DNA of 64,000 bases from Minisyncoccota bacterium (GTDB taxonomy: Bacteria > Patescibacteriota > Minisyncoccia > Phycocordibacterales > JAACPR01). Below the pieces are notes generated by a model, which was not told the origin of the DNA, made no database searches, and was given only the letters and a program-made list of their open reading frames with translations. Shown here one piece after another: positions 7,434 to 52,842 of this stretch. The DNA lies in the NCBI GenBank assembly GCA_041674225.1, contig JBAYWG010000001.1:169401-233400 (forward strand), read 5' to 3'. The position numbers were made by a program, and so were the translations under genes. Numbering within the stretch: position 1 is the stretch's first letter; every line of letters starts with the position of its first letter.

Positions 7434-8294
7434 ATGCAAATAAAACGCCTTCTAAAAATAAGCCGACCGAGATTTTGGATTTATGAAATAGGTCCTTATA
7501 TTGTAGGAATTGCAGCAGCAGCGGGTATAACACTGAACGCGTGGCTTTTAATCCCCGCGATCATATTTTTCTTTTTTTTCACATATCCAGCAAATATTTT
7601 TATCTACGGAATTAATGACATTTTTGATTACGAAACAGATAAATTAAATCCAAAAAAAATATCCTACGAATCTCTTGTAATGCCGGAAGAGTGGCCAAAG
7701 CTTTGGAAAAATATTATTTTGTTTTGTGCGCCTTTTTTAGTCTATGGATTTTTTGTTTTAAATATTCAAAGCTTCATCGCGCTTCTGGCTTTCTTTTTCT
7801 TTGCGGGATTTTATTCATCTACACCGATCCGTGCAAAAGCTCGTCCTTTTTTAGACAGTATTTTTAGTGCAGGACATTATGTTGCTACAGCCGTGTTTTC
7901 ATATTTGATGATTAATTATTTTTTAAATCAAGAAATTACTTGGGTTAATCTCGCGATTGGCACACTTGCAGGAATGTTTTGGGCTATAGCTATGCATGCA
8001 TATTCCGCAGTTCCGGATATTCAAGCAGACAGAGATGCAAAACTAGAAACCATTGCTACAAAGTTAGAAAAAAATAAAACAATAATTTTATGCTCAGTTC
8101 TTTATGCACTTTCTGGAATTCTTGCTTTCAAATTTTTAGGGATAGTCAGCATTATCCTTTCACTTGTTTATGTTGTATTTATGATCAAATCAATCAAAAC
8201 AACAGACGAACAACTTTTCAAAATTTATACTTATTTCCCAAAAATAAATTCTCTTTCAGGAATGATTATTTTCTTTTCAGTTTTACTTAATTAG
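7434..8294 (+). CDS. UbiA-family aromatic/polyprenyl prenyltransferase (membrane). Given its neighbours, a candidate lycopene elongase or carotenoid/prenyl-lipid prenyltransferase
   Basis: NDIFDYETDKLNPKK (NDxxDxxxD motif) and multiple TM helices. Convergent with crtI. Confidence 0.7.
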   Translation: MQIKRLLKISRPRFWIYEIGPYIVGIAAAAGITLNAWLLIPAIIFFFFFTYPANIFIYGINDIFDYETDKLNPKKISYESLVMPEEWPKLWKNIILFCAPFLVYGFFVLNIQSFIALLAFFFFAGFYSSTPIRAKARPFLDSIFSAGHYVATAVFSYLMINYFLNQEITWVNLAIGTLAGMFWAIAMHAYSAVPDIQADRDAKLETIATKLEKNKTIILCSVLYALSGILAFKFLGIVSIILSLVYVVFMIKSIKTTDEQLFKIYTYFPKINSLSGMIIFFSVLLN

Positions 8295-9796
8295 ATTTCT
8301 TTTAGTGGTTCTGCGTCTTGTATATTTTCTAATCTTTTATAAACCAACTCTGCAGAAATTAAACAAATAGGCATACCGATTCCTGGATTTGTACCGGCAC
8401 CCACATAATAAAGATTCTTAACCTTCTTGCTAACATTATTCGGTCGAAAAATTGCAGTCTGACTCAATGAGTGTGCAAAACCTAGTGCAGTACCTTTAAA
8501 TGCATTGTAGTCCTTGATGAAGTCTTTTACAGAATAAAGCTTTTTATACACAATTCTATTTTTGAAATCTGGAATATCCATATTTTCTGCCATTTGATTT
8601 ATTACAAACTCAGAATATTCTTCTAGTGATTCATCAGTGTGATCTAAACCAGAAGCAATTGGCACAAGTACAAACAAATTTTCTTTATCAGCTGGCGCTA
8701 CATTTGCATCAGTTTTTGATGGACAACAAACATACAGAGAAGGATCTGTTGGCCATGTAGGTTTTTTAAATATTTGTGAAAAGTTTTCTTCCCAATTTTC
8801 AGCAAACAAAAGATTGTGGTGTTGCAGAGACGGAATTTTTCCTTCTACTCCCATGTACATAATAAATGCAGATGGTGCAAGCAATCGTGATTCCCAATAT
8901 TTTTTACTTTTCTCCCGGTGTGGCTCATCCAAAAGATGCATATCTGTGTGAGCAGTATCTGCATTTGAAATCACAATATCAGCTCGAAATTCTTGTCCGT
9001 TTTCCAATCTCACTCCCACAGCAGTTTTATTTTCAACAATAATTTTATTTACAGGACTGTTTAACAAAATCTCAACTCCGTGTTTTTTGGCAATAGTTTC
9101 CAACGCTTCTATGATTTTATAAATACCTCCTTCTGGATACCAAATTCCCTCCACAAAATCTACATAATTCATCATGCTATAAATCCCCGGCGCATCTCCA
9201 GGAGAAGTTCCAAGCAAAACAGTTTGATATTGCATTACTTTTCTCAGAATTTCGCTTTTGAATTTTTTCTCGATGATAGACTTCACACTTGAGAAGAGCG
9301 GGAGTTTTCTTCCTTCTTTCATTACTCTTTTGTTGAAGAAGTCAAAAATAGTATCGTAGTTTTTAAACATGAATTCATTTTTTGCGATTTCATATTGATA
9401 CTTTGTACTATCCATATATTTTCTCAAAACATCACCAGAACCCGGCTCCAAACTTTCAAAAGTTTCGATTGTTTTTTCTAAATCAGAATAAAAATCATAA
9501 TGTTTCTTTTCGCTTTTTAGAAAAATCCGGTACGAAGGAGAAAGTCTTTTTAATTTTAAATATTGAGTAATATCTTCACCCATCAATTTAAAAAAGTGCT
9601 CAAAAATATCTGGCATCATGTACCAAGACGGCCCCATATCAAAAACAAAACCATCTTCGGAATAGATTCTGGCTCTACCGCCGACTTGATCATTTTTTTC
9701 AATCATCTTCACCTTGTATCCCTTTTTAGCCAACATACAAGCCGTAGAAAGGCCTCCGATACCTGTTCCTATTATGATTACTTCTTTTTGACTCAT
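8291..9796 (-). CDS. crtI: Phytoene desaturase / CrtI-family FAD-dependent carotenoid desaturase
   Basis: VIIIGTGIGGLSTACMLAKKGYKVKMIEKNDQVGGRA FAD-binding N-terminus and length ~500 aa typical of CrtI. 4-nt overlap with crtB. Confidence 0.85.
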   Translation of the reverse strand: MSQKEVIIIGTGIGGLSTACMLAKKGYKVKMIEKNDQVGGRARIYSEDGFVFDMGPSWYMMPDIFEHFFKLMGEDITQYLKLKRLSPSYRIFLKSEKKHYDFYSDLEKTIETFESLEPGSGDVLRKYMDSTKYQYEIAKNEFMFKNYDTIFDFFNKRVMKEGRKLPLFSSVKSIIEKKFKSEILRKVMQYQTVLLGTSPGDAPGIYSMMNYVDFVEGIWYPEGGIYKIIEALETIAKKHGVEILLNSPVNKIIVENKTAVGVRLENGQEFRADIVISNADTAHTDMHLLDEPHREKSKKYWESRLLAPSAFIMYMGVEGKIPSLQHHNLLFAENWEENFSQIFKKPTWPTDPSLYVCCPSKTDANVAPADKENLFVLVPIASGLDHTDESLEEYSEFVINQMAENMDIPDFKNRIVYKKLYSVKDFIKDYNAFKGTALGFAHSLSQTAIFRPNNVSKKVKNLYYVGAGTNPGIGMPICLISAELVYKRLENIQDAEPLKEI

Positions 9797-10701
9797 GATT
9801 TTTTAATTAATGTTAAAAACGCTAACTTAAGTTTTTCTCCAAAACTTAAATGAACTCTGCCAGCGAAAATGTCGTATTTTACAACCTCTATCTTAACAAT
9901 AATTTTTGAATATAAAACTCGTGCTACTTTTATCGCTTTCGCCTCTCTTTTAGGCAACATTTGCAATCCGATATCAGCTTTTTTATAAAGATCTTCAGTT
10001 CTAGCAATTTCAAATTTCATCAAATCAATAAAATTTTGATTTATATTTTTATTAACTAAATCATCTTTTGTCACCCCAAACTTTTGCATTTCATCTTGTG
10101 GAAGATAAACTCTATCTCTTTGTATTACATCTTCATAAATATCGCGCAAAAAATTTGTCATTTGAAATGCTTCGCCAAGCGCTTTTGCATGATCTAGAAT
10201 TTTATTTCTATAATCTAAATCTGTAACAAATCTTTTATCTTTTGAACAAACTATATAAACCATCATATAACCCACTACTACAGCCGAACCATACATATAG
10301 TCTTCCAATTCTTTATAATTTTGATACTCAGTTTTTGAAGTATCTTGAATCATAGCCGAAATAAAATCTTCACTATATTCAAAAGAAATTTTGTATGTGT
10401 CAAAAACATATTTTGTGGCACGTAAAACTTTTAATTCATCTCCTTCGGCAAAATATTCTTCACCGCGATAACACTTACCCCACACCTCCTTCCACTCATT
10501 TAATTTTTCTAAAGCTAAATCTTTTTGATCTTTATATGTAGTATCTATATATTCATCTGGTAAACGAAAAAATGCATACAAAACACAGATCGCATCACGA
10601 TACTCCGCACCCATTAACAAAGTTCCAAAATAAAAACTCTTCCCATATTCTCGATGAACTCCTCTGCAAAACTCTAAATCTAAATTATATTCTGGGTACA
10701 T
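9793..10701 (-). CDS. crtB: Phytoene synthase (squalene/phytoene synthase family)
   Basis: YGKSFYFGTLLMGAEYRDAICVLYAFFRLPDEYID and YMYGSAVVVGYMM (YxYxVAGxVG) motifs. Confidence 0.85.
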   Translation of the reverse strand: MYPEYNLDLEFCRGVHREYGKSFYFGTLLMGAEYRDAICVLYAFFRLPDEYIDTTYKDQKDLALEKLNEWKEVWGKCYRGEEYFAEGDELKVLRATKYVFDTYKISFEYSEDFISAMIQDTSKTEYQNYKELEDYMYGSAVVVGYMMVYIVCSKDKRFVTDLDYRNKILDHAKALGEAFQMTNFLRDIYEDVIQRDRVYLPQDEMQKFGVTKDDLVNKNINQNFIDLMKFEIARTEDLYKKADIGLQMLPKREAKAIKVARVLYSKIIVKIEVVKYDIFAGRVHLSFGEKLKLAFLTLIKKS

Positions 10702-11804
10702 TAAGATTTTCTCTTATCAAGCAATATCACAAAATCAAACCACACGTCTTTGATCATTGGTTTAAGATTTGATTTCAAAATTATTTTGTTGGCTTTATCT
10801 AATTGAGAATGAATTTCCTTTTCAGCATAATCAATTGCGCCTGTTTCTTGAAAAAGTTTTTGCAATACAAGTACTGAATATTCATCAATTTCTTTTCCAA
10901 AAAGTGCTAAGAATATATTTCTATCATTTTCTTTGGCGTTTTCAAAAATATATTGCGTCAAAATTGTGTGTTGACCGTCTTGCACATCCAGCAACCTTTT
11001 CTTTCCTGTTTTTTTAGGATCTCCCACAATATCCAAAAGGTCGTCTTGTATTTGAAAAGCCTGACCCAAGCACAACCCCAATTCCTTATAAAAATCTTTG
11101 TTAATATTTTTTCCAGTCAAATTTGCACCGATCAACATTGGATTAACAAAAGAATAAAAGGCTGTTTTGTATTCATTTTTAAGAAAAATATCTTTCATCT
11201 CTACTTCGTACTGAAGCATAAAAGATACATCTAGTATTTGTCCTGCGACCACTTCCTCAATCATTCTAAAAAATATTTGCTGTACTTTTTTATTATTCAA
11301 ACTAGAAATAACTTCATGCGACCAACTAAAAATTAAATCTCCCGCCAAAATAGCAATGGATTCTGCAATGTGTTTTTTATCGCCTCGAGGATACGATGAA
11401 ATAAATTTTTCTAAATAAACATGCGTCGTGTCTTTGGAATGTCTTTCTACACCTTTATCAATAATATCATCATGAATCAAAGCAAACGCATGAAATAATT
11501 CTAAAGCAATTCCAGCTCGCAAAACTTCTTCTTGGTTCACACCACCTTCTGTAGAGTACGCCAAAAAAGCCATATATGGACGAACTCTTTTTCCACCTTC
11601 ACGTACCAAAGACACAGCATAGTCCACTGCTTCCAAACTTAATTTATTATCAGAAAAGTTTTTATAGTTTAAAACTTTGTCATCCAAATACTCATTTAAA
11701 CGAATATTAAAAATATCTTGAAAAGATTTCAGATCATACGCTTTTACAACAGGAATAAAGTTGATTTTTTCTAAGTGAAGGAAAGAAAGAATGTTTTTAA
11801 TCAT
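10701..11804 (-). CDS. Polyprenyl diphosphate synthase (GGPP/FPP synthase-type trans-prenyltransferase)
   Basis: First DDxxD (LIHDDIIDKG) and second DDxxD (FQIQDDLLDIVGDPKKTGKK) aspartate-rich motifs. Confidence 0.85.
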   Translation of the reverse strand: MIKNILSFLHLEKINFIPVVKAYDLKSFQDIFNIRLNEYLDDKVLNYKNFSDNKLSLEAVDYAVSLVREGGKRVRPYMAFLAYSTEGGVNQEEVLRAGIALELFHAFALIHDDIIDKGVERHSKDTTHVYLEKFISSYPRGDKKHIAESIAILAGDLIFSWSHEVISSLNNKKVQQIFFRMIEEVVAGQILDVSFMLQYEVEMKDIFLKNEYKTAFYSFVNPMLIGANLTGKNINKDFYKELGLCLGQAFQIQDDLLDIVGDPKKTGKKRLLDVQDGQHTILTQYIFENAKENDRNIFLALFGKEIDEYSVLVLQKLFQETGAIDYAEKEIHSQLDKANKIILKSNLKPMIKDVWFDFVILLDKRKS

Positions 11805-11824: not shown

Positions 11825-12460
11825 TTATTTATTCCCCGCTAAAGCAACTTTAATTCCAAGCGCGATAAGCACAGCGCCAGTAACTCTTTCTACGTAGTGT
11901 TGTACTTTTCCAATTTTGGTTCGTATAAGTGAGTTTGAGAAAAAGAGAGCAACTAAAACAAACCAAACAAAGGTAATCAGCATCATTTCTATTCCATAAG
12001 CGAACTGAATTATTTTAGGAGTTGAGAGATCAATTATTTGAGTGAACAATGCTAAAAAGAAAAGTGTAGCTTTTGGATTGAGTGCGTTTGTAAGAAATCC
12101 AATTTTAAATGATGACCAAAGACTTATATCTTGCTTTGCGACATTATCTTTTGTTTCAGTGTGCACCGCAGGCTTTGCTCTCAGAGATTTGTACCCGATG
12201 TAAATCAAATATCCCGCACCGATAAATTTAACAATATTAAAAATGATAACTGATTTAGAAATAACAAATCCAATTCCCAAAAGTGAATACGCCACATGCA
12301 CCAAAATTCCCACAGCAATTCCAATCGCTGTGTAAATTCCAGTCTTTCGAGAATAAATAATACTGTTACGAGCAACCATCGCAAAATCTGGACCTGGACT
12401 TACAACAGCCAAAAGATGCACTATTGCTACGGTTATAAACTGCGCAAGAAATATTGTCAT
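11825..12460 (-). CDS. LysE/RhtB-family amino-acid exporter
   Basis: AVVSPGPDFAMVARNS N-terminal signature. ~210 aa, 6 TM. Confidence 0.8.
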   Translation of the reverse strand: MTIFLAQFITVAIVHLLAVVSPGPDFAMVARNSIIYSRKTGIYTAIGIAVGILVHVAYSLLGIGFVISKSVIIFNIVKFIGAGYLIYIGYKSLRAKPAVHTETKDNVAKQDISLWSSFKIGFLTNALNPKATLFFLALFTQIIDLSTPKIIQFAYGIEMMLITFVWFVLVALFFSNSLIRTKIGKVQHYVERVTGAVLIALGIKVALAGNK

Positions 12461-12481
12461 TTTTTGATTATAACAGAAATT

Positions 12482-14371
12482 TTACTCCTCCAAACCAAAA
12501 TATCTTGGAAACAATACCGGTGTACTATCCGCCGTTATACCATCTCTTGTAATAGGAAGTTGTTGAGAAGTCGCGGGCCATGGCAGGGGAAGTTTTCCAA
12601 CAAAAGGTTTATCTCCAAAAAGCACATCCGCCACACCTTGCCCTTCACTACCAGGAAGCCACGCCGCCACAAGCGCATCCCAAGAAGAAATTTCGTTCGC
12701 AATAAGCAAAGGTCGTCCTGAAATTATTACTACCAAAACTTTTTCAGAAACTGCTTGAAGTTTTTTGATCGCCATCAAATCTTCAGAATATAAAATTGGA
12801 TATTCTCTATCGCCCACTCCTTCTGCATAAGGTTGCTCACCTACAAATGCAATTCCTAAATCAGCTTTCGTACCATCATCCACAAAATTACCTAGTGTTC
12901 GATAATCCACTCTGGTATTTTCGCTTACAGCATTTTTTATTCCATCTATTATAGAAGTCGCTCCTGGCAAATCATTTCCATTTATTCCTTGCCAATTTAC
13001 AGTCCAGGCTCCTGATTGATTTCCAATATTATTTGCAGCACTTCCAACAATACGAATATGTTTTATATTTTTATCAATTGGTAAAACTGAATTATCATTT
13101 TTTAACAGAACCAAAGATTGCGACACGGCATCTCTTGCAAGCGCACGATGTTCTACTGAACCAACAACTTCAGTTGAAATTTTATTTTCATTTTTATCAA
13201 AAAGACCTAGCTCAAATTTTGCATATAAAATTCTCCGCACAGCATCATCTATTCTGTCTTCGGAAACTTCTCCAACACGCACAGCTTTGGAAACATTTTT
13301 AACAAAAGGTTTGTAATCAAAAGGCAACATCACCATATCTACTCCAGCATTAATAGCCGTAATCACAGATCTATAATCACTCCCAGGAATTTCATAAACA
13401 CCATACCAATCAGAAACAACAAAACCTTTAAATCCAAGTTCTTTTTTTAGGACATCAGTAATCAAATATTCACTCGCAGACAATTTAGTTTCACCCCAAG
13501 TATTCAATCCAATCATTACACTTTTCACACCAGCATCTACAACGGCTCTAAATGGAACTAGATATTCTTCTCTAAGTAATTCTTCGTCAGCCAAAGTAGC
13601 ACCTTGATCTATTTTGTAATTTTCATTTGAAGAAGTGTCCCAAAGCATTCCACCAAGTCCAACAAAATGTTTTGCTGTACCTATCACAGAATTTCCCTGT
13701 AATCCTTTTATATATGCAACACCTAAATCAGATACGAGAGCAGGATCATCAGAAAAAGTTTCGTAAACTCTTCCCCAACGAATGTCGCGAGGCATATCAA
13801 GTGTTGGTGAAAAACTCCAATGCACATTTGTTGCTAAAAGTTCTTTTGCAGTAGCAGATGCAATATCTTCGACAAGCTTTGGATCCCTAGTCGCGCCAAG
13901 TCCAATAGAGTGCGGAAAAACTGTAGCTCCAGGAATATTTGAATGCCCATGAATGGCATCAACTCCATAAATTATCGGAATACCGAGACGACTATTTTTG
14001 GATTCATTTATAAAATCTGAAACCATTTTGTTCCAACCTTCAGGGGTATTATTTTCTGGATTCGCTCCAGCGCCACTTAGAAGTGCACCGAGTCCGTACA
14101 AAGAAACATCTTTCATTTCTTCAACACTTTTATTTTCAACAAGAGCCATCTGTCCAATTTTTTCTTCAAGTGTCATATAAGACAAAAGATCTTCAACACG
14201 TTCTTCTACAGAATTATTTGGATTTAAATACAAAGATTCTTTTGTTGGATTTCGTACAATCTTTGTTTCTTCATTCCGAAATAAAAATGATAAAAAATAA
14301 AAAATTCCCACCAAAATAATTAAAAATAAAAATAAGTACACAAGTTTAGCGTTCACTTTAAAATCATCCAT
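12482..14371 (-). CDS. Glycoside hydrolase family 3 (beta-glucosidase / beta-N-acetylhexosaminidase-like), N-terminally membrane-anchored
   Basis: GVDAIHGHSNIPGATVFPHSIGLGATRDPKL...FSPTLDMPRDIRWGRVYETFSDDP and KHFVGLGG are GH3 catalytic-domain signatures. N-terminal hydrophobic anchor. Confidence 0.85.
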   Translation of the reverse strand: MDDFKVNAKLVYLFLFLIILVGIFYFLSFLFRNEETKIVRNPTKESLYLNPNNSVEERVEDLLSYMTLEEKIGQMALVENKSVEEMKDVSLYGLGALLSGAGANPENNTPEGWNKMVSDFINESKNSRLGIPIIYGVDAIHGHSNIPGATVFPHSIGLGATRDPKLVEDIASATAKELLATNVHWSFSPTLDMPRDIRWGRVYETFSDDPALVSDLGVAYIKGLQGNSVIGTAKHFVGLGGMLWDTSSNENYKIDQGATLADEELLREEYLVPFRAVVDAGVKSVMIGLNTWGETKLSASEYLITDVLKKELGFKGFVVSDWYGVYEIPGSDYRSVITAINAGVDMVMLPFDYKPFVKNVSKAVRVGEVSEDRIDDAVRRILYAKFELGLFDKNENKISTEVVGSVEHRALARDAVSQSLVLLKNDNSVLPIDKNIKHIRIVGSAANNIGNQSGAWTVNWQGINGNDLPGATSIIDGIKNAVSENTRVDYRTLGNFVDDGTKADLGIAFVGEQPYAEGVGDREYPILYSEDLMAIKKLQAVSEKVLVVIISGRPLLIANEISSWDALVAAWLPGSEGQGVADVLFGDKPFVGKLPLPWPATSQQLPITRDGITADSTPVLFPRYFGLEE

Positions 14372-16520: not shown

Positions 16521-17205
16521 TCATCATGGGTTGAAGTGAGAATATCAATTCATGCTCGAACTCATCGGTCGGTTCTTTACCTTCCTTAAGTTTCTGCATT
16601 TTCTGATACCATCGGATGAATTGCCACACAGCAAATCCCGAGACCATTTCTGCCGTCGGACCTACTGTGATAGTTGCTCCGCAAGCGGAGACTTCAGCAA
16701 CGTCATCACCATACAGAGTTTTTTCCCATCCCGAAACTTCTACGGGACTTGATGGATTCACTGTATAGATACGACCACTATTGGAACCCATACGAGTCTC
16801 AATAATAACCTCAACGTGAGGTCTGTAACGAAGTGATCCTTTCCAGATTTCTTGTCGTGAAGACATTGTATCTGTCAGCAGGAAAACAATCTGACCGAGA
16901 CGTTGTGTTCCATCAACTCGTTCATTGTGCACCGAAACTTCGGTACCTGTCTGCACGAGAATAATATCTTTCAACGCCTCAACCTTGAGTTGTCCATTGT
17001 GATTGTTACCGAATATTTGGTTTGGGACGTTGTGGGGTTCCACTACATCCGGATCCCAAATGTGAATGTTACGGATACCGAGCTTCGCCAACGAAAGGGC
17101 GATTCTAGATCCTGTAGCACCCACACCTATGATATCGATACGTCTATCACCAAATTCTTGCGGTGAAAACACATCAAGGTGTCTTATTACGTCTAGTTCT
17201 GGCAT
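16498..17205 (-). CDS. Minimal E1-like ubiquitin-activating/ThiF-MoeB family adenylyltransferase (235 aa, no rhodanese or zinc-ribbon domain)
   Basis: IDIIGVGATGSRIALSLAKLGIRNIHIWDPDVVEPHNVPNQIFG combines the GxGxxG P-loop and the DxDxVExxN...Q motif of the ThiF/MoeB/E1 superfamily. Confidence 0.8.
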   Translation of the reverse strand: MPELDVIRHLDVFSPQEFGDRRIDIIGVGATGSRIALSLAKLGIRNIHIWDPDVVEPHNVPNQIFGNNHNGQLKVEALKDIILVQTGTEVSVHNERVDGTQRLGQIVFLLTDTMSSRQEIWKGSLRYRPHVEVIIETRMGSNSGRIYTVNPSSPVEVSGWEKTLYGDDVAEVSACGATITVGPTAEMVSGFAVWQFIRWYQKMQKLKEGKEPTDEFEHELIFSLQPMMIVGSSFS

Positions 17206-18167: not shown

Positions 18168-19799
18168 TTATTTGATAGCAAGACTGCCATCAAATTCCTT
18201 CAAGAATTCCAGGACCAGCTCGATTACTGTTTCCAGATCGAGTTCTCCAAGAAGTTCCGGCAATGTCGCATGAAGAGGACCTATGGGTAGCCCTCCATCC
18301 CACATTGGGTGCAAATGAGGAATATTAATATCCGGCTCCATTTCGTTACCGATCGGAGAAATACTAACTAATCCTTTCAACACGTTGCACAAAATACGAA
18401 ACGATCCGATGTTGTGAATTTTTTCGGTTGAAATGTCCCTGCTTTTGATAGATCTAGTATCAACAACGAAGACATCATCTCCCTTGAAAAAGACACCCGA
18501 GACTTCCGGCCAGGCACTCACCCTTTGGATACGTTCATTGAACAAATCAGTGGTCACAGCAGCAGGAACCTTTACAAGGTTTTGGATAAAAACGTTTTGC
18601 GCTATCATCATCTGATTGCGACGAATATTATTCATCAACTTTTTCAGTTCATTTTCCTTATCCTGCTTCTGTGCTGCTCGTTCATCTACGAACAGATTAC
18701 GGAAAGCCGAGATCACGACAGGATCTTTAAGCGGTGGCTTTTTTGGATAATCGATACTTTTATCAACAACAGGAAACTTCCTCAAAACAGTGAGGTAATC
18801 TCCGTAATGAATTTCGTTTATCGTTCCAATTGCTTTAATGGCAACAAGGATGGACGCTTCGAACTCATAATCCTTGAGTAAAGGAAGAATAACCTTTCCT
18901 TCCCCCATACAAAATTGATTCGTGTACCGATCCACATGAGGATGACCAAAAGTGTGTCTTTCATACTCAACTCGACGAGTGAGGTTTTTAAACACAGCAG
19001 GTGTTTCTTCACCACCTCCAAAGAGAAGCTTGATCTCAAATTGTCCAAATTCATGAAGAATTTTAGTTCCGGGATCAACAGCATACATGGTCTGTGTGGT
19101 GAAAATGATTCTTCTACCATCCACTCTAATGTTCTGAATCTCAGGAATATTCCAAAGAGTTTGAAGCACCTTATCAGCTTCTTCGTAAGCTTGCTGGTTG
19201 TCATCATTCTTTGATACCAAAGAAGAAGTCAAAACAATATCGTTTTGAATCAGCCGACGATTTTCTGTAAGCTGTTTTTGAAGATCAACATCTTTCTTGG
19301 ACTTAGGAATTTTGAATTTCCCATTCTTGATTTGAACAAGACTAGGCAAATCTCCCCTGATGAGATTCATTGCTTCTGTAAGAATGTGTTTATACACATC
19401 CACGTTCGGCTTATTACAGCAATTGTTAGAAGCATCGTAAAGCAAATACAGATTATTTTTTCCAACGAGTTCTGCAACAGCATAATTGCTTTCAGGATCC
19501 ACAATAACAATCCCTCTACCAGAAGGTTGATATAGAGTACGATTACATGTACGAACTCTTTGTTTCCACAACTCGTCTGGAAGCGTCAATTCGACCTTAT
19601 CACCATCAGCAGTACCGAAGACGTTAAGAAAAAATGTAGTTGAAAAACGACGTACATCTCTTTGTCTTCCTTGACAGTTGTACAGTTGAATTTCATTGAA
19701 CCCCAATATTTCCAATGCATCACCCAAAACATCTCGGGTAGCTGATTCAAAAGAATCCGCAACACGAAAATCCCAATTTGTTTTTTCTATTCTTATCAT
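18168..19799 (-). CDS. Large hypothetical protein (543 aa) with a central UBC-like E2 active-site signature (ERHTFGHPHVDRYTNQFCMGEG; compare canonical HPN[IV]x3-4GxIC) flanked by uncharacterised N- and C-terminal regions
   Basis: Same strand and GC regime as the Ubl/E1/JAB genes. The E2-like call is motif-level only. Confidence 0.45.
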   Translation of the reverse strand: MIRIEKTNWDFRVADSFESATRDVLGDALEILGFNEIQLYNCQGRQRDVRRFSTTFFLNVFGTADGDKVELTLPDELWKQRVRTCNRTLYQPSGRGIVIVDPESNYAVAELVGKNNLYLLYDASNNCCNKPNVDVYKHILTEAMNLIRGDLPSLVQIKNGKFKIPKSKKDVDLQKQLTENRRLIQNDIVLTSSLVSKNDDNQQAYEEADKVLQTLWNIPEIQNIRVDGRRIIFTTQTMYAVDPGTKILHEFGQFEIKLLFGGGEETPAVFKNLTRRVEYERHTFGHPHVDRYTNQFCMGEGKVILPLLKDYEFEASILVAIKAIGTINEIHYGDYLTVLRKFPVVDKSIDYPKKPPLKDPVVISAFRNLFVDERAAQKQDKENELKKLMNNIRRNQMMIAQNVFIQNLVKVPAAVTTDLFNERIQRVSAWPEVSGVFFKGDDVFVVDTRSIKSRDISTEKIHNIGSFRILCNVLKGLVSISPIGNEMEPDINIPHLHPMWDGGLPIGPLHATLPELLGELDLETVIELVLEFLKEFDGSLAIK

Positions 19800-19865
19800 T
19801 TTGTACTAGGTATAATTTTAAAACAACTTCTGGCAGAAGAATATAACACAAATCAAGACATGTCA

Positions 19866-19906
19866 ATTATTAAAATAAAAAGCCGCCACCCAACCAGGGT
19901 GGCGGC
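19866..19906 (-). terminator. Rho-independent terminator downstream of the FAD-oxidoreductase gene (10-bp stem gccgccaccc/gggtggcggc, T-run on minus strand)
   Basis: Read directly from the sequence. Confidence 0.65.
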
Positions 19907-19913
19907 ATACACA

Positions 19914-21467
19914 TCAGCGAGCGAGCTGATATTCCGCGCTTCTCATAACAACACCAAACAAAACATCTCCAATCCGATGAAGCATGCCAGGAATGACGAT
20001 GGCATTCGGGTTGTGAGGAGTTTCCAACACAGACCCAAAGCCGTAATAACCAGACAAAATCCGCTTCTTAGGATCAGGACTGTGTTTGACGATAAACTCT
20101 CCATCGTAATCAAACAAAGGACACTTATCTACAGGATCGTAGGTGCAGCCCATGCTTTTCATAACTTCCGGCGAATTACCATACCCAATGAGTGTCATGA
20201 TCTTCCCAAAGGGAATTTTTTCAACCTCAGAGTGCTCTTTACGAAAGACGTAGACTTCCTTTCCAGCAACTTCCCAACGATTGACTCCATAAAGAATTTT
20301 TCCATTGTGAAGCGCACGGTAGTAATCACTACGACTTCTCGCAAGATCTCCCTGAAAATCAACCAGATTAGGAAGGGATACATCCCGAAATAATCTGCGT
20401 GCAACTCCATCAACGACAACAGTCGTGTTTGGATTATAAACACATTCTTCAGGGTAGTGAGTAAGAACACGATAGTCCACAGCCGCACCTCGATCAATCA
20501 GATTATGAATCTGAAAAAGCATCTCTGCCGTTGAATTACCGAGTCCGACGAGGATAATTCTCTTACCCTCAACTTCATCGCGATCAATAACCTTCTGCCA
20601 ACGTGAACCGGCTTGGGCAGTGGTCGCTTCAGTAGTCATGCGACTTGGATCAGAAAGCGGTTTTGGTTTACCGAGACCAATCGTATTAATAACGATTGGA
20701 AAAGTTTCTTTTTTTCCATTAGCGAAATGAAGCACGTGCTTCAACTTACCAGGAACAATCTTGACCACCGTCTCCTTTTTAGAACGGTAAGCTAGATTAT
20801 CTAGGAACCGGCGAACTTCTTCACCATCTCCAGGTGCAGGCCGCAAGATTCTATCAAAGAATTGTAGCTGACGTGGATTATTCCTAGACAGTCCAAAGAC
20901 ATTGTTCTGACTCCAGATACCCAGCGGCTTAGACTTCTCATATATGGTAATGTTATTAAAACCAAGTTGTCTGAGCGCGTAAGTGATAAGAATCCCCGCA
21001 GCCCCATAACCGACAACGGCAATTGGAACTCGAGACAAGGAATTTGGAATAGTAGATTGGCTGACAAAAAAAGTTGCCGCACCCTCTCCTAAAAACTGTT
21101 CCGGACTCCGAAGACCGCTATTGGCAAGAGCCAAATCGATACGACGATTCTGCAAATGTTCACCTCGATATTCAGGAAGATTATCTTCACTGTCGATAAA
21201 AGGAAGTGCTTGGGCATAACCATTAAGAACTCCTCCAACATCACCGACTCGAAGAACCAATTCAGAAAAAAGGTTACCCCAACGTCCTGTGTTTGACATT
21301 TCTTGGACAGCATCAAGACTGAATCCTTTCTCGTCAATCCATCTTCTCAGAACACCCAGCGAAACCTTTTTCATAAAAGAATCTCCTAGGGTCTTGAGCT
21401 TTTCACAAGCAGTCACTAAGTCACGAGGAGTTCTTTTTGAACTCATTCTTTTTGAAGCGGTATTCAT
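19914..21467 (-). CDS. FAD/NAD(P)-binding oxidoreductase with two dinucleotide-binding motifs (flavin monooxygenase / pyridine-nucleotide-disulfide-oxidoreductase-like) and a ~150-aa N-terminal extension
   Basis: VPIAVVGYGAAGILITYALRQLGFNNITIYEKSKPLG (GxGxxG) and RIILVGLGNSTAEMLFQIHNL (GxGxxA) Rossmann motifs. Confidence 0.7.
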   Translation of the reverse strand: MNTASKRMSSKRTPRDLVTACEKLKTLGDSFMKKVSLGVLRRWIDEKGFSLDAVQEMSNTGRWGNLFSELVLRVGDVGGVLNGYAQALPFIDSEDNLPEYRGEHLQNRRIDLALANSGLRSPEQFLGEGAATFFVSQSTIPNSLSRVPIAVVGYGAAGILITYALRQLGFNNITIYEKSKPLGIWSQNNVFGLSRNNPRQLQFFDRILRPAPGDGEEVRRFLDNLAYRSKKETVVKIVPGKLKHVLHFANGKKETFPIVINTIGLGKPKPLSDPSRMTTEATTAQAGSRWQKVIDRDEVEGKRIILVGLGNSTAEMLFQIHNLIDRGAAVDYRVLTHYPEECVYNPNTTVVVDGVARRLFRDVSLPNLVDFQGDLARSRSDYYRALHNGKILYGVNRWEVAGKEVYVFRKEHSEVEKIPFGKIMTLIGYGNSPEVMKSMGCTYDPVDKCPLFDYDGEFIVKHSPDPKKRILSGYYGFGSVLETPHNPNAIVIPGMLHRIGDVLFGVVMRSAEYQLAR

Positions 21468-21535
21468 TTGTATGTAATATGGGTTTAAAATTGAACAGTA
21501 TTCGTTTTCGAAATTAACATTATTTTATGCTATTG

Positions 21536-22462
21536 TCAATTTTTTTGGAATTTAATAGTTTGTTCTGTCCAATCAAAATATGGCCAGCTCACAATATTAT
21601 TTCTAGCAAGAATTCTAGGACCCCAATATGATAAGAAGAAAGTTCCAGAGACAATAAGAAGTACAGCAGTAAGGATTACCACACGATTAGTTTTAGCATT
21701 AAGCCATTTTTCAAATCTACCTCCAGTTCCATAGAAAAGAATCAAAAACAATACTGCCATTACAATAATATTTCCAATCCCCTGAAGAACAAAAGCGAGG
21801 CTACCATAAAATGGATTATGAGTTGAGGCCGCGTATTCAAACATTTTTCTAAAAAGTGGAAAGGGACGACCAATTAAAAATGCACCTATAGTTGCACCCA
21901 TGATAAAAGGAGCGGCCCACACATGTTTTGCAAAAAACTTCGAGAATGGATTAGGAATTACTTTAATAGTTCCCAATCCCCAAATAATATAAGTGATTCC
22001 AATCAAGCAGAATACAACAACCGACTGCAAGAGTCGCACTGGCATTCCATTTGAAAGTTGCTCGGTTGAAAGCTGAGGAAGGTTCGAGCCAATCAAAGCA
22101 CCTATCCCGCCATAAAGCGCAGCTACAACAATTAGACCAAGTGACAAAAATCCTAAAGGCTTCAAGACACTTCCAGTTGATCTCTTTCCACTTGAAAGTG
22201 GAGCGATCGCACTAAAAGCACAAATGTTGCAAGCAGTGAAAGTTCCTGCCAAACCTGAAACAAAGGCAAATAATGCACCCATAATTATTCCAGTAATTGG
22301 AGTAGTCTTAGCATCATATCCAAGAAGATTATTAGCTATAGGATCTCCAAGATCACTATCCACAAATGAAGCTGACCAAAATACACTTATAAGAAAACCC
22401 AACAAAACGCTACCTACCACTATTAAAGTTTTTTGTTTTCGGCTTATATTAATTTGTTCCAT
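21536..22462 (-). CDS. Polytopic integral membrane protein (~8 TM) with a Cys pair inside a TM helix (AGTFTACNICAFSAIAPL), possibly DsbD/CcdA-like
   Basis: Hydrophobicity pattern. Last gene before tRNA-Gln. GC like the island. Confidence 0.45.
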   Translation of the reverse strand: MEQINISRKQKTLIVVGSVLLGFLISVFWSASFVDSDLGDPIANNLLGYDAKTTPITGIIMGALFAFVSGLAGTFTACNICAFSAIAPLSSGKRSTGSVLKPLGFLSLGLIVVAALYGGIGALIGSNLPQLSTEQLSNGMPVRLLQSVVVFCLIGITYIIWGLGTIKVIPNPFSKFFAKHVWAAPFIMGATIGAFLIGRPFPLFRKMFEYAASTHNPFYGSLAFVLQGIGNIIVMAVLFLILFYGTGGRFEKWLNAKTNRVVILTAVLLIVSGTFFLSYWGPRILARNNIVSWPYFDWTEQTIKFQKN

Positions 22463-22502
22463 ATTTCTAAACTACAATTTTAATATGAACATGTCAATTT
22501 TA

Positions 22503-22575
22503 GGTTGCCCGACAGGGATTCGAACCCCGATTAATGGCTCCAGAAACCACTGTCCTACCATTAGACGATCAGGCA
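22503..22575 (-). tRNA. tRNA-Gln (anticodon CUG)
   Basis: Hand-folded cloverleaf: acceptor UGCCUGA/UCGGGCA with the U1:A72 pair typical of bacterial tRNA-Gln, D-arm GUCU-AAUGGUA-GGAC, anticodon arm GUGGU-UUCUGGA-GCCAU, T-arm CGGGG-UUCGAAU-CCCUG. CCA not encoded. Confidence 0.8.
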
Positions 22576-22613
22576 ATGTGTGAATATTATCAGTAAACTA
22601 GTTCGTTTCCAAC

Positions 22614-23522
22614 CTATTGAGTTTCCAACGGCTCATTCGTAAAAGGATCTCTAGGACCAGTGTATTCTGGTGGAGCTGGTTCTGCAGGCGCTTCATCTTC
22701 TACTTTTATTAGTTGATCTAAAATTTCAGATGATTGTTCATCTGTTTTATTTAAAAAGAAAAACCAAAAGAAAAATAATCCAATCAAACCTAACAAAACT
22801 ATTAGAACAAAAATCATAGGCCATGGACTTTTTTCAATTTTCTTTTGCTGTTCTTCCGCTAAAACTTTTTCCATTTCTGGCATTCCTGCAAAACCAACAT
22901 TTATATATTGTTGTGCCTGCACTTTTGTTGGCATGAATGGAACACTTGAAACTGGAGCTTCACCTTCTACTGATCCAGTTTCATTTAGAACTTTTGGAGT
23001 CGAGTTCTCTTTTTGATTTGCAATTTCATTTGGCAGAAGTGTCGTTCCGGGAGCTGGCAATCTTTGCCCACCACTTGCCATCAAATGTGCAGCGGTCTGC
23101 GTATTCGTTCCAACATTCATAAAAGTCTGTGCTGAATCTTTTACAGCAGATTGTGCAGAACCTTCTTTTTCAAAACCTACAGGGACGAAACCTTTTTTAA
23201 TTTCCGGATGAACAAAATCATGTTTAAACAATTTTTCTTTTGCTTTTAAATTTTCTTCTGCAGGAGCAACGACAGACGGTGCAACATTTGTCTGACTTTT
23301 TATTAATCCTAAATCTGTATCGACTTCAGGTGATGTTGTTGTTCCAATTGTGGGTACAGGGTTTTTCACTGCCGGTTCACTCCCACGATACTGAGAAAAC
23401 AATTCACTAATGTCTGCATCTTGAAAACCTTGTTTCATCAAAACATCACGAATATCTTCATAATCGCGCCCCTCGGCCAAACTACTCTCAATCAATACTT
23501 GTAATTGTTTTGTTAAAATCAT
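22614..23522 (-). CDS. Hypothetical protein with one C-proximal TM helix and a low-complexity middle region
   Basis: 302-aa ORF. PWPMIFVLIVLLGLIGLFFFWFFFL hydrophobic segment. Confidence 0.5.
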   Translation of the reverse strand: MILTKQLQVLIESSLAEGRDYEDIRDVLMKQGFQDADISELFSQYRGSEPAVKNPVPTIGTTTSPEVDTDLGLIKSQTNVAPSVVAPAEENLKAKEKLFKHDFVHPEIKKGFVPVGFEKEGSAQSAVKDSAQTFMNVGTNTQTAAHLMASGGQRLPAPGTTLLPNEIANQKENSTPKVLNETGSVEGEAPVSSVPFMPTKVQAQQYINVGFAGMPEMEKVLAEEQQKKIEKSPWPMIFVLIVLLGLIGLFFFWFFFLNKTDEQSSEILDQLIKVEDEAPAEPAPPEYTGPRDPFTNEPLETQ

Positions 23523-27665: not shown

Positions 27666-28340
27666 CTACTGATTAGAATTTAATCTAGACCTTATTTCAG
27701 ATAATTCTTTTTCTTTATCAAGATCTGATTGATTTAATTCTTCTAAATCTTTTTTATATTCCTCAATATTAGCTTCGTCAGAATCTGAAAGTTTGTCTCC
27801 ATACTTTTCAGGAGCACTTGCAACTTCAAGTTGTTTTTCAAGTGATTCTCTCGGACCCCAATCTATTTGTGGTTTTGAAAAATGCAGGGGTTGAATAAAA
27901 GCAAGATTTTCATTTTCATCTTTAATAAAAACAGTTGCATAACCTACCTTTTCATACCCCAAAGTTTCAGCTACATTTGTATGAGCATTTTCATGAGCTA
28001 AATATTTTCCAACCCAATCTCGATACTTGCCAAATCTGTCTCCTAATTGATCTAGCATTTCTTTAAATTCTACAATTGTGTCAGCAATGGCACTGGAAGC
28101 AAATATCTCTTTCTCTATACTATCTTCATCATCAATTTCAGGACTTTCCCTATAACCTTTTTTCAAAAAATTTTCTTTTAAATTCTGTAATTGTAATTCC
28201 AACTCAGAGAATCTTTCTTCAGAAATAGGATTATTAATAGCTCTATCCAATCTTCCAGAAATCTCCTCCTTCATCTCCTGAATAATTCTCTCGTTTGAAT
28301 TAATAGGTGGTGGTGATTCCTGCGACTTAGAAAAATTCAT
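27666..28340 (-). CDS. Hypothetical acidic, coiled-coil-rich protein
   Basis: Start moved to the internal Met (MNFSKSQ, ATG at 28340) because the longer ORF runs into tRNA-Thr. Confidence 0.5.
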   Translation of the reverse strand: MNFSKSQESPPPINSNERIIQEMKEEISGRLDRAINNPISEERFSELELQLQNLKENFLKKGYRESPEIDDEDSIEKEIFASSAIADTIVEFKEMLDQLGDRFGKYRDWVGKYLAHENAHTNVAETLGYEKVGYATVFIKDENENLAFIQPLHFSKPQIDWGPRESLEKQLEVASAPEKYGDKLSDSDEANIEEYKKDLEELNQSDLDKEKELSEIRSRLNSNQ

Positions 28341-28363
28341 GTGTGCATTATAACAAAATATTG

Positions 28364-28435
28364 AGCCGTTATCGAGGATTGAACTCGAGGCCTCCCCATT
28401 ACCAATGGAGTGCTCTACCACTGAGCTATAACGGC
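28364..28435 (-). tRNA. tRNA-Thr (anticodon GGU)
   Basis: Hand-folded: acceptor GCCGUUA/UAACGGC, D-arm GCUC-AGUGGUA-GAGC, anticodon arm CUCCA-UUGGUAA-UGGGG, T-arm UCGAG-UUCAAUC-CUCGA. Confidence 0.8.
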
Positions 28436-29425: not shown

Positions 29426-30382
29426 TTATTGTTCTCGGATGTCAGGGTTCACTAGACATCGAACAGGTCCTCCTGTCACAGAAAATTCTGTTTCTGGATT
29501 TTCACAACGAATTGTATAAGTACCTGGCTCCACGTCCATATCTACAGATGTAGTATTTTCTAATTCCAAACTTTCCAAATCCATAGGTACACTGTTTCTG
29601 TAAAGAATACATGAATCGGCACTATCAACTACCCAACTCAATCCACAAGTTCCACCTTCATTTGCAACACCAGTAGTCAAAGTTAGAGGAGAAGTAAATA
29701 CCGGTGGTGGCAATTCACAAGTGAAACTACTCTGACTACAGAATAATCCTTCAGCGCATTCATCATCCACCATACATTCTCTTATAAAAATCGAACAATA
29801 ACCTGTAGAAACATTGCTAGTGTCTGGATCGGTTATTCTCACACTTGCTGTTTTTGATTCGCCTTTTACAGCATAGTCAACAGGTCCAACATTTTGGTTA
29901 TTTTCTACACCAGTAATCGCAGTTCCTCCCCACAAATAATCAAATGGACCTTCTCCATTTGCTGCACTTGATTTCCAGTAGACATCTTCACCAACATTAA
30001 AAAATGTTTTTGGGACAGTAGCACTTAAAGAAGAATAAGCTGCACATGAAGCTTTGAACTCATCGACTTCTTGTATATGTGAACAAGACGCCATATTTGA
30101 AACCACTTCGCCAGTTCCAACAATCCTTGCTTCTACATTAACCAAATATTCTGTTGTTTCTTCAGGGTCATCATAAACAATATCGTATGCCCCACCATCA
30201 ACAGATCCGGAAGTAACTACTTCATTATCATTATTTTGAGCAAGTACGGTTGAGAAAACATTATTGGCAATTACATAAATTATTATTACAGCAACCACAA
30301 AAAATAATTGTTTAAATTCTTTACTTTCGATTTGCCATTTTTTTAATTTATTTTTTGTCATTTTTTTAAATTGTCTCATCAA
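29426..30382 (-). CDS. Membrane-anchored or secreted Cys-rich hypothetical protein
   Basis: N-terminal basic region followed by the LFFVVAVIIIYVIANNVF anchor and a Cys-rich C-terminal domain. 4-nt overlap with the upstream giant gene. Confidence 0.5.
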   Translation of the reverse strand: MMRQFKKMTKNKLKKWQIESKEFKQLFFVVAVIIIYVIANNVFSTVLAQNNDNEVVTSGSVDGGAYDIVYDDPEETTEYLVNVEARIVGTGEVVSNMASCSHIQEVDEFKASCAAYSSLSATVPKTFFNVGEDVYWKSSAANGEGPFDYLWGGTAITGVENNQNVGPVDYAVKGESKTASVRITDPDTSNVSTGYCSIFIRECMVDDECAEGLFCSQSSFTCELPPPVFTSPLTLTTGVANEGGTCGLSWVVDSADSCILYRNSVPMDLESLELENTTSVDMDVEPGTYTIRCENPETEFSVTGGPVRCLVNPDIREQ

Positions 30383-33300: not shown

Positions 33301-33711
33301 TCCTCTTATAAAATAACTCCCCCCAGGGATGGTAGGCGGTAATTCATATTGAATAGTTTGTCTTCCGGATTCTCCAGGAGCCAATCTTGGAAAAGTATCA
33401 GACGTAGAAACTATATAGTCCAAATTTCTGAATAATAAACCTGTGGTTTCTAATTTTTCTCCATTATAAAATTCAAAACTATATTTCAAATTGTCGACAA
33501 AAGTTGTGGAGTTGTTTTGTACACTAAAATCTATACTTACCAATCTCTTATCAGATGAATACGCCGTGTTGTGTATTTCTACGACCAAAGGAATAGTCTC
33601 TTGTCTTACAACTTCTGAGGTTTGTGCAAAAATTTCTGCAGGAAATACAGAAGATAGAATTAAAGATAAAGATAGAATAGTAAAAAATTTACTACAAACT
33701 TTTTTAAACAT
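30379..33711 (-). CDS. Giant cell-surface protein (1110 aa) with signal peptide, a central hydrophobic segment and a Cys-rich C-terminal half containing a repeated GC[TR]DPxxxxYN...DDGSC-like motif
   Basis: MFKKVCSKFFTILSLSLILSSVFPAEIFAQT signal peptide. Motif copies: WGCTDPSASNYNYQANVNDGTC, FGCRDPLHPSYNSQ...YDGC, YNYDDGSCVC. Confidence 0.6.
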   Translation of the reverse strand: MFKKVCSKFFTILSLSLILSSVFPAEIFAQTSEVVRQETIPLVVEIHNTAYSSDKRLVSIDFSVQNNSTTFVDNLKYSFEFYNGEKLETTGLLFRNLDYIVSTSDTFPRLAPGESGRQTIQYELPPTIPGGSYFIRGTVFNEELSYYGITYTKEPLRLTGRGTFISNKQASLVDVETKNSYQLMEGPTLEKDKSYIVSFPESTNQELFDAIAREDIYSDIKISHISDNAKIVYEENNILLEDLIREDGEALEFKIDPWENILSGSHTAFISFKNARGEQISENISVRLLYRGLIGRIYETQTNINSYRKGEPISLIVNTIVAGDPMAKKATLKAIFKSKSEVIQEVEKEIDLNGTFQGTDVDVDFSDKKIKSKTLIDEIELILSDENGNILDTQVVTMDPNKIFEYPKSNLLRNLLWSLLALVVVVGLLAFLKKKTNFTLVSIAIALLFVGGTIIDSKNNLASAQEYITYWGCTDPSASNYNYQANVNDGTCLYYQDAGDSNDGNSNQTKPILYGDLIDIWSVPDGEPEGYQGLCSGENSCSDVEFYVKVSCKACGNLPVDVTVDFYNDTVDPAKTKTWNMNTTSSTSVNEWIFGPFVEEFCFDVDHPQRVETNGVLSQTYRLEARADFGGDYCRVDFEQGDSRQNLEFTDVSRSDRQMMCALDSEIQSSFYLDYSEDGLKDSDEPYIKSNNATSYCIGVEGLPLGAVQKQFSESILGGLIPQDCNSPDDIPYFFKTVDFGNYIAKLDPSNSFGWIQTGVEYFFNDAWYTEYSPGNSYFPVAAGEILKSRVGIKNLYPVTLSCAANPGVGWYIDNFYSDDHTQEELEYVWTGDVEPESGSPSSGGVIYTPPTEPPAETPKCTTPASVTITNVATTLQACYEHEKDMCGGLYYGKSYTVIGATLSLRDPCNTGELWFINTNFNGSRIRTDTRKHGDSWDAPINRSGYLSDAEDSDTVTVDGWTRSSRINQGVTRTVYDSESVSLEMCPCTACEEEFNAQGWPSSNYGKNEACQFYPPTTTVIFGCRDPLHPSYNSQATHPTYVNPYTGAYDGCDYGGGCRVSWADNFDSIAGPKYNYDDGSCVCTYDAPGESYDGEEYPCYGPEHYYPSNN

Positions 33712-50156: not shown

Positions 50157-50159
50157 ATT

Positions 50160-52330: not shown

Positions 52331-52741
52331 TTAATTACAAGATGTGTCATCTTCTCCGAGTGTATCACCAATACTGTCGTACTCTTTTGCGACACCGTCG
52401 GCATCTACACAAAAAGCTCCGTCTGGTATAACAGAAGAAATAGCCCAACTAGATCTACCGTCATAACACAGGGGAGCAGTTCCGCCATTTAGTCTTTGAG
52501 CTTCTGACATTGCCCGAACAATTATAGAATCCGAACAAACCCCCTCAAAACTATACCCGCTCGCAAAAACTAATTCCGCCTGAGTACGCACATTAACGAG
52601 TGTCGACTTGATCGCTGCAGTGTTTCCCTTTCCTTTTGCATCAGACAAAGAGGCTAACACAATAGAGCCAAGTAAACCTATTATAGAAATCACAACAAGC
52701 AACTCAATCAATGTAAAACCTCTTTTTCCGACTAATTTCAT
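52331..52741 (-). CDS. Type IV (major) pilin-like protein
   Basis: KRGFTLIELLVVISIIGLLGSIVLASL prepilin leader plus a C-terminal Cys pair. Confidence 0.75.
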   Translation of the reverse strand: MKLVGKRGFTLIELLVVISIIGLLGSIVLASLSDAKGKGNTAAIKSTLVNVRTQAELVFASGYSFEGVCSDSIIVRAMSEAQRLNGGTAPLCYDGRSSWAISSVIPDGAFCVDADGVAKEYDSIGDTLGEDDTSCN

Positions 52742-52842
52742 TAATAAAATTGTACCATATTAAATATTATTGAATAAGATTGGTAAAACAAAAAACCGAC
52801 TTGCGCCGGTTTTTTGTTGATTATAACTTAGGAAGTTAAACC

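Follow-up and report, generated by a model that had tools for sequence, protein, structure and literature searches.

Can a member of the Patescibacteria (the candidate phyla radiation, CPR), bacteria thought to have lost nearly all lipid and secondary metabolism, make a carotenoid of its own, and if so, which one? The question is raised by four genes at positions 7434-11804 of contig JBAYWG010000001.1 as analyzed here in a window of 64 kb (the whole stretch of DNA examined, to which all positions refer). The genes encode a UbiA-family prenyltransferase, a CrtI-family desaturase, a phytoene synthase (CrtB) candidate of the SQS_PSY family and a polyprenyl synthase. They probably form a self-contained carotenoid cassette of Paceibacterota, the most likely product of which is a C50 carotenoid resembling bisanhydrobacterioruberin.

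The prenyltransferase gene (7434-8294, plus strand, 286 aa; Pfam UbiA PF01040, E 4e-21) converges with the desaturase gene (8291-9796, minus strand, 501 aa; Pfam Amino_oxidase, E 4e-33), and by their coordinates the two overlap by 4 nt at their 3′ ends. The start of the desaturase gene overlaps by 4 nt with the stop of the phytoene synthase gene (9793-10701, minus strand, 302 aa; Pfam SQS_PSY, E 1e-62, 212 bits), the start of which overlaps by 1 nt with the stop of the gene for the polyprenyl synthase, a probable geranylgeranyl diphosphate (GGPP) synthase (10701-11804, minus strand, 367 aa; Pfam polyprenyl_synt, E 2e-46, 159 bits). All four open reading frames (ORFs) are intact and abutting. 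These junctions bear out the original prediction, made from the sequence of this stretch, that phytoene synthase, phytoene desaturase and polyprenyl synthase genes overlap or abut and that a UbiA-family gene is convergent with crtI; the six ORFs it had named, including two neighbors described at the end of this text, were recovered exactly in place with Pfam E-values of 4e-21 to 2e-76. A scan for promoters and terminators gave counts not above those in shuffled sequence.

The UbiA protein is identical to NCBI MFA7193470.1, annotated as 'MAG: prenyltransferase [Candidatus Paceibacterota bacterium]', in agreement with the earlier suggestion of a reduced, CPR-like genome. Independent assemblies (ENA, Logan, JGI, NCBI) carry the identical protein on contigs of 242-476 kb. 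The same gene order came back in separately assembled contigs from ENA and Logan (up to 242 kb), and NCBI lists a contig of 476 kb. The G+C content of the cassette (31-33%) is inside the range of the window (31-44%). Elsewhere the window is typical of CPR in its content, with genes for type IV pili and for a VirD4-like ATPase and numerous ORFs that match no Pfam family.

Family and fold of the prenyltransferase

The prenyltransferase matched PF01040 over residues 21-255 (75.9 bits, cutoff 34.2). Its NDxxDxxxD motif, already noticed in the first reading of the sequence, is present as N61-D62-D65-D69, and this motif and a second DxxxD (D195-D199) were invariant among 51 homologues. An AlphaFold2 model (pLDDT 93.5, pTM 0.91) showed the UbiA fold, and Foldseek matched it to AfUbiA 4TQ3 (E 3e-7, template modeling (TM) score 0.66), DGGGPS 6M31 (TM 0.74) and ApUbiA 4OD5 (TM 0.71). 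No lycopene elongase structure was among the PDB matches of the model, and neither a sequence search of the PDB nor a search of a phage collection gave a match.

Among the NCBIfam models, the protein exceeded the cutoff of NF009516 (220.7 bits, cutoff 205) and scored 139.6 bits on NF009608 (cutoff 217), 137 bits on NF010119 and 23-36 bits on the MenA, UbiA, ChlG and homogentisate models (cutoffs 181-313). NF009516 and NF009608 were calibrated with loci found by tblastn in a plasmid collection, among them those of Halocatena salina (L004) and Halarchaeum sp. (L006), in which the prenyltransferase gene lies between a crtI-family gene and cruF, with a phytoene synthase gene nearby. Cluster-encoded haloarchaeal LyeJ scored 397-426 bits on NF009516, and CrtEb from an Arthrobacter crtE-crtB-crtI-crtYe-crtYf/crtEb cluster scored 469 bits on NF009608 and 134 bits on NF009516. 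Because cluster-encoded LyeJ and CrtEb score in this way, NF009516 was regarded as LyeJ-type and NF009608 as CrtEb-type, and by these scores the window prenyltransferase is nearer to the LyeJ-type than to the CrtEb-type model. Its identity to haloarchaeal LyeJ from crtD-lyeJ-cruF clusters is 31-33%.

Passing the cutoff of NF009516 is not function-specific, because haloarchaeal LyeJ paralogues from outside carotenoid clusters pass it too (223 and 232 bits), and a pass was for this reason rejected as proof of LyeJ function. The paralogues are encoded at L093:3941-4828 on a Haloferax larsenii plasmid and at L094:3959-4828 on a Halomontanus rarus plasmid; one of the two has geranylgeranyl reductase genes and further UbiA-family genes around it.

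The placement of the protein, which the original prediction had proposed as a check, was examined in a neighbor-joining (NJ) tree of 47 taxa and 278 columns with 200 bootstraps, in which the references were one CrtEb and two LyeJ. All replicates (200/200) split E. coli UbiA and MenA and two further UbiA-family proteins of Haloferax from a group made up of the window clade, CrtEb and haloarchaeal LyeJ with its paralogues. A grouping with quinone or archaeal-lipid prenyltransferases, raised earlier as the outcome that would speak against an elongase, was thus not found, in the tree or in the model scores (23-36 bits against 221). A bacterial elongase clade containing the window protein and proteins of Acidobacteriota and Abditibacteriaceae was recovered in 150/200 replicates. 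The reading as a lycopene-elongase-type locus (lyeJ/crtEb) therefore stands as to the elongase family, by the tree, the models and the conserved linkage described below (to crtI and crtB, and to cruF in sister lineages), and the choice between LyeJ and CrtEb is not settled by the tree. On this sequence evidence the prenyltransferase is a homologue of carotenoid C5-elongases and a candidate LyeJ-like lycopene elongase/hydratase.

Partner enzymes and conservation of the cassette

The desaturase scored 632.1 bits (cutoff 640) on NF058655, the model of CrtID, a bifunctional phytoene desaturase/3,4-desaturase, on which haloarchaeal desaturases adjacent to lyeJ scored about 750 bits and Arthrobacter CrtI 453 bits. 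It passed TIGR02734 crtI_fam (509 bits, cutoff 238) and gave 43 bits on the HpnE model (cutoff 283). Its identity is 42-45% to the haloarchaeal enzyme adjoining lyeJ and 37% to Arthrobacter CrtI, so that in sequence it is closest to haloarchaeal bifunctional CrtID of the C0507 type. In Haloarcula japonica, C0507 was assigned both CrtI and CrtD activities by knock-out and complementation (Yatsunami et al. 2024, PMC11946383). Since C0507 is bifunctional, one desaturase is enough for a pathway of the bacterioruberin series, and no second CrtI-family gene was found in the window by tblastn.

The CrtB candidate has two DxxxD motifs (DEYID and DIYED); it shares 33-35% identity with haloarchaeal CrtB from bacterioruberin clusters and 23% with Arthrobacter CrtB. 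On NCBIfam it scored 161 bits for cyanobacterial CrtB, 157 for HpnD and 138 for HpnC, every one below cutoff. Genuine CrtB from a haloarchaeal cluster behaves alike, scoring best on HpnD (193 bits, below cutoff), and the ranking of CrtB, HpnC and HpnD scores is therefore uninformative. The window has one SQS_PSY gene, which rules out a two-paralogue HpnCD scheme. The suspicion that the crt genes might be of squalene/hopanoid (HpnCD) type was accordingly not sustained, with a single SQS_PSY gene and a flavoprotein scoring 632 bits on the CrtI/CrtD model against 43 on HpnE.

For the polyprenyl synthase, the best NCBIfam matches were short-chain (C15-C20) synthases only, none reaching its cutoff. 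Its first and second aspartate-rich motifs (FARM and SARM) are DDIID and DDLLD. The FARM is without the two-residue insertion of E. coli IspA and has F at position -5 and A at position -4, a pattern kept in CPR homologues, which we take to fit an archaeal-type GGPP synthase by chain-length rules. From these motifs the protein is a probable GGPP synthase.

Relatives of the UbiA protein were numerous. A database search gave 2345 at E <= 0.001, with identities of 48-100% among the top 120, and several of the top relatives were named 'lycopene elongase/hydratase (dihydrobisanhydrobacterioruberin-forming)' by JGI. A scan with one genome per GTDB species gave at least 588 relatives, of which the best 80 were examined for their labels. 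These came mostly from metagenome-assembled genomes (MAGs) of Patescibacteria (Paceibacteria, Nomura-, Uhr-, Taylor- and Peribacteria, Absconditabacterales and 'Saccharibacteria'); next, at 41-47% identity, came mostly MAGs of Acidobacteriota (Pyrinomonadaceae, Blastocatellia, 'Chloracidobacterium') and Abditibacteriaceae. The closest homologues were plentiful and up to 87% identical, and the taxon-labelled ones among them were CPR. The 'Saccharibacteria' label on many CPR loci comes from one pipeline, and cassettes of CPR or acidobacterial type also occurred in MAGs labelled 'Candidatus Nanoarchaeia archaeon' or 'uncultured Gammaproteobacteria bacterium' (L058, L033, L079, L090); such odd labels are probably label or binning artefacts, and the labels are to be read loosely.

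Linkage was counted by local tblastn in 84 related loci, those with at least 4 kb downstream being regarded as adequately long. A crtI gene was present in the same locus in all 58 adequately long loci (43/43 labelled CPR or unlabelled, 15/15 non-CPR), and crtB always adjoined crtI in the related cassettes. The identical convergent UbiA/CrtI layout was found in 32 of the 43 CPR loci, the other 11 having crtI elsewhere in the locus; crtB was present in 32/32 and a polyprenyl synthase gene in 27/32 of the convergent ones. All 15 adequately long non-CPR loci were convergent, and one of them had a polyprenyl synthase gene. The genes flanking the cassette were unrelated between loci. Source habitats given in the record titles were mainly lakes, reservoirs, river surface water, ponds and glacier-fed streams.

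In 24 of 25 loci not labelled CPR (mostly Acidobacteriota and Abditibacteriaceae), a gene for a CruF homologue lay divergently within 600 bp of the elongase gene, on its upstream side. These homologues had a better match in TIGR03460 ('bisanhydrobacterioruberin hydratase CruF') than in the CruF model for gamma-carotene hydroxylase. Only three CPR-labelled loci had cruF nearby (L034, L045, L086), as did L033, which is labelled Gammaproteobacteria but is sister to the Uhrbacteria locus L034. In 19 loci not labelled CPR, nearly all acidobacterial, a type-1 isopentenyl diphosphate isomerase (IDI) was fused or adjacent to the CruF-like gene. One of these is a 442-aa ORF at L067:4616-5941 (minus strand) with scores of 209 bits for the IDI model and 127 bits for the CruF model, and the fusion or adjacency was seen in 18 further loci (e.g. 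L073, L088, L059, L083); it would couple the supply of dimethylallyl diphosphate (DMAPP) with the C5-elongation pathway. In two CPR relatives the cassette adjoins genes for both subunits (I and II) of cytochrome bd oxidase and for a peroxiredoxin (L010:13206-15433 and 16650-16846) or genes for MsrA/MsrB, thioredoxin and DNA photolyase (L008:3951-7209 and 12448-13920), a setting in keeping with a part in the response to oxidative or light stress.

The original prediction had called a pigment pathway unexpected in small, symbiont-like genomes, a view that does not hold: the pathway genes occur in dozens of Patescibacteria species, and lyeJ, crtD and cruF have been reported there (PMC9948471).

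The proposed pathway and its alternatives

The catalytic steps and the product are inferred from the gene identities, the family placement, the linkage and the fold described above. In the proposed pathway, the polyprenyl synthase would form GGPP from isopentenyl diphosphate (IPP) and DMAPP, CrtB would convert two GGPP to phytoene, the single CrtI-family enzyme would convert phytoene to lycopene, and the product of the convergent UbiA-family gene would add a DMAPP-derived C5 unit onto C-2 at both ends of lycopene. The C-1 carbocation would then probably be quenched by water, as in LyeJ, and 3,4 double bonds would probably be introduced by the same desaturase, after the example of its closest characterized relative. 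The pathway would end in an acyclic C50 diol resembling bisanhydrobacterioruberin, the stage predicted because no cruF was found within 64 kb; with a cruF elsewhere in the genome it would proceed to full bacterioruberin. The likely role of such a pigment would be that of a membrane-spanning stiffener and antioxidant or photoprotectant. No rhodopsin or photolyase gene was found in the window in a Pfam survey.

Several points weigh against this reading. The identity of the prenyltransferase to haloarchaeal LyeJ is only about 31-33%, and LyeJ paralogues outside carotenoid clusters reach comparable scores on NF009516. In the NJ tree the bacterial elongases form a separate lineage, which grouped with CrtEb in 102/200 replicates, with haloarchaeal LyeJ and paralogues in 41/200 and with LyeJ alone in 12/200, with one CrtEb and two LyeJ as references. 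The desaturase falls narrowly below the CrtID cutoff (632 against 640), and the product length of the GGPP synthase is deduced from motif rules alone. A CruF homologue was not found in the window by tblastn, and a CruF profile search matched many CPR CruF proteins, none of them traced to the contig of the window, a result that is not conclusive. Genes of the methylerythritol phosphate and mevalonate pathways (Pfam survey) and IDI were likewise not found in the 64 kb, and no IDI turned up in the CPR loci either. Freshwater CPR classes except Gracilibacteria encode only the C10-C20 steps of isoprenoid synthesis (Chiriac et al., PMC9166423), and no literature was found tying Acidobacteria or Abditibacteria to bacterioruberin.

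The foremost alternative is an elongase with CrtEb-like chemistry, in which C5 units would be added without formation of the C-1 tertiary alcohol, to give a flavuxanthin-like or novel acyclic C45/C50 carotenoid. The position of the lone CrtEb beside the bacterial clade (102/200), the 140 bits of the window protein on the CrtEb model and the lack of cruF in the window and in most CPR cassettes are in its favor. However, that score is below both the cutoff (217) and the 221 bits obtained on the LyeJ-type model, the tree support is weak and comes from a single CrtEb sequence, and neither the window nor any of the 84 related loci gave a match to the C50 cyclase genes crtYe/crtYf. Moreover, sister loci have CruF, which acts on bacterioruberin-series intermediates, and the desaturase is of the haloarchaeal lyeJ-linked type and not of the actinobacterial CrtI type. 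CrtEb-like chemistry is thus disfavored by the profile scores, the absent cyclases and CruF in the sister loci, and we consider it unlikely.

Still less probable is that the minus-strand genes make a C40 carotenoid only (lycopene or a didehydro derivative), with an unrelated UbiA-family enzyme that would prenylate a lipid, quinone or cell-envelope acceptor. This would suit the position of the prenyltransferase gene on the opposite strand, which keeps it out of the transcript of crtI, crtB and the synthase gene, and the equal family-model scores of LyeJ paralogues outside haloarchaeal carotenoid clusters. It is contradicted by the retention of the gene in the crtI locus (43/43 CPR and 15/15 non-CPR loci) though the flanks are unrelated, by scores of only 23-36 bits on models of MenA, UbiA, ChlG and the homogentisate enzyme, and by the split from E. 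coli UbiA and MenA and from other archaeal UbiA-family proteins in 200/200 replicates.

A squalene/hopanoid (HpnCDE) or C30 (CrtM/CrtN) pathway in place of a C40 carotenoid pathway is highly improbable: the near-equal sub-cutoff scores of the SQS_PSY protein on CrtB (161), HpnD (157) and HpnC (138), which might suggest it, are matched by haloarchaeal bacterioruberin-cluster CrtB (193 bits on HpnD), HpnCDE requires two SQS_PSY paralogues where the window has one, the flavoprotein is far from HpnE (43 bits against 632 on CrtID), and the linked synthase has the GGPP-type motif pattern. Implausible labels (Nanoarchaeia, Gammaproteobacteria) on several related loci, and a crtB called in two pieces in the relative L008, could hint at a cassette that is foreign to the CPR organism through mis-assembly or mis-binning, or at a decaying relic, but the four intact ORFs, the gene order shared by separately assembled contigs of ENA and Logan (up to 242 kb), the 476-kb contig recorded at NCBI, the unexceptional G+C content, the flanking CPR genes and the many close homologues labelled CPR make this hardly credible. 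The HpnCDE, quinone/lipid and contamination readings were accordingly rejected on model scores, tree, gene count and independent contigs.

Relation to known systems and other genes of the window

The cassette predicted here to make a bisanhydrobacterioruberin-like carotenoid resembles several known gene clusters. In the haloarchaeal crtD(c0507)-lyeJ-cruF cluster with crtB (Haloarcula japonica, Halobacterium salinarum), the UbiA-family elongase gene likewise adjoins a gene for an NF058655-family desaturase, with phytoene synthase near; haloarchaeal LyeJ and the window elongase both pass NF009516, and in both systems one desaturase can serve the CrtI and CrtD steps. The window differs in having no cruF, in the convergent and not co-directional orientation of the elongase gene and in the GGPP-type synthase gene within the cassette. 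Its host is bacterial and non-halophilic, and its elongase clade is not nested in the haloarchaeal one.

The actinobacterial decaprenoxanthin-type cluster (Corynebacterium glutamicum; Arthrobacter sp. StoSoilB13, L005) has the same kinds of genes, for GGPP synthase, CrtB, CrtI and a UbiA-family elongase, and leads to a C50 product. Unlike that cluster, the window is without crtYe/Yf, its elongase is under the cutoff of the CrtEb model, and its desaturase and CrtB are 37% and 23% identical to those of Arthrobacter. The CruF-UbiA-CrtI-CrtB loci of Acidobacteriota (Pyrinomonadaceae/Blastocatellia) and Abditibacteriaceae (e.g. L050, L067) have a convergent UbiA/CrtI-CrtB layout identical to that of the window; their desaturases are 53-57% and their elongases 42-47% identical to those of the window, and the elongases are in the same NJ clade (150/200). 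Unlike the window, these loci have divergent CruF upstream (24/25) and often IPP isomerase, and they are mostly without a polyprenyl synthase gene.

The lyeJ, crtD and cruF genes have been described in Patescibacteria of Lake Baikal by homology only, and a role in cold membranes was proposed for the product (Haro-Moreno et al. 2023, PMC9948471). Those genes share with the window the phylum and the proposed bacterioruberin-type C50 pathway. Going by the published description, they are set apart by the presence of cruF and by genes that are often unlinked or on separate reads, whereas the window has a tight four-gene cassette and no cruF within 64 kb. No other report of such genes in Patescibacteria was found in the literature, and none for the acidobacterial and abditibacterial loci. 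Because lyeJ, crtD and cruF were reported in 2023, the window cassette is a further member of the known kind of bacterioruberin-type genes in Patescibacteria. It is a variant of these: cruF was not found in the window, a GGPP-type synthase is built in, the layout is convergent, and the elongase belongs to a lineage separate from the characterized elongases. Its value is that of a clean, linked example with a comparative picture, the idea itself having been known since 2023.

Since the cassette is conserved over many lineages of lakes, rivers and glacier streams, these cells seem to spend resources on making their own membrane pigment. This bears on how membranes made of scavenged lipids are stabilized, on how the cells cope with light, oxygen and cold, and on the source of their isoprenoid precursors. 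The large bacterial clade of putative lycopene elongases, with those of Acidobacteriota and Abditibacteriaceae, could also provide C50 carotenoids for biotechnology. A more tentative proposal, which we regard as possible but doubtful, is that the elongases of Patescibacteria, Acidobacteriota and Abditibacteriaceae constitute a third C5-elongase lineage beside LyeJ and CrtEb and that the CPR cassette lacking cruF leads to a distinct C45/C50 carotenoid. If so, the pigment could act as an antioxidant and as a rivet across the bilayer of ultra-small cells that are unable to build fatty acids, its IPP and DMAPP might come from a host, and pigment synthesis would be among the few lipid-type biosyntheses kept by these organisms.

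The crt genes are followed by genes for a LysE-family exporter (11825-12460, minus strand; Pfam LysE, E 2e-36) and a membrane-anchored GH3 glycosidase (12482-14371, minus strand; Pfam GH3 N-terminal domain, E 2e-76), which together occupy 11825-14371 on the strand of the crt genes, with gaps of 20 nt between the LysE and GGPP synthase genes and 21 nt between the GH3 and LysE genes (from coordinates). The two genes are thus positioned as the original prediction had placed them, but they are not conserved neighbors, no homologue of either being found in any of the 84 related loci. They may be co-transcribed with the crt genes in the window. As members of the cassette they were rejected, with no homologue in related loci and with varying flanks, and they are probably unrelated to it.

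Elsewhere in the window, all on the minus strand, four successive ORFs of 302-543 aa (18168-23522) and an ORF of 1110 aa (30379-33711) had no Pfam match at E <= 1e-5. A GTG-start ORF of 251 aa (27666-28421) overlaps at its 5′ end with tRNA-Thr (28363-28435, minus strand) and has no Pfam match and no called gene on record, which casts doubt on its start or on the ORF as such. A translesion DNA polymerase of the Y family (UmuC/ImpB-like), with DUF4113 at its C-terminus, is encoded at 35605-36858 (minus strand) and may bear on tolerance of UV damage. A type IV pilus block (prepilins, prepilin peptidase) lies at 49563-54262 (minus strand) and, near it, the gene for a VirD4/TrwB-like coupling ATPase at 62091-63932 (minus strand); such ATPases and type IV pili are commonly described in Patescibacteria.

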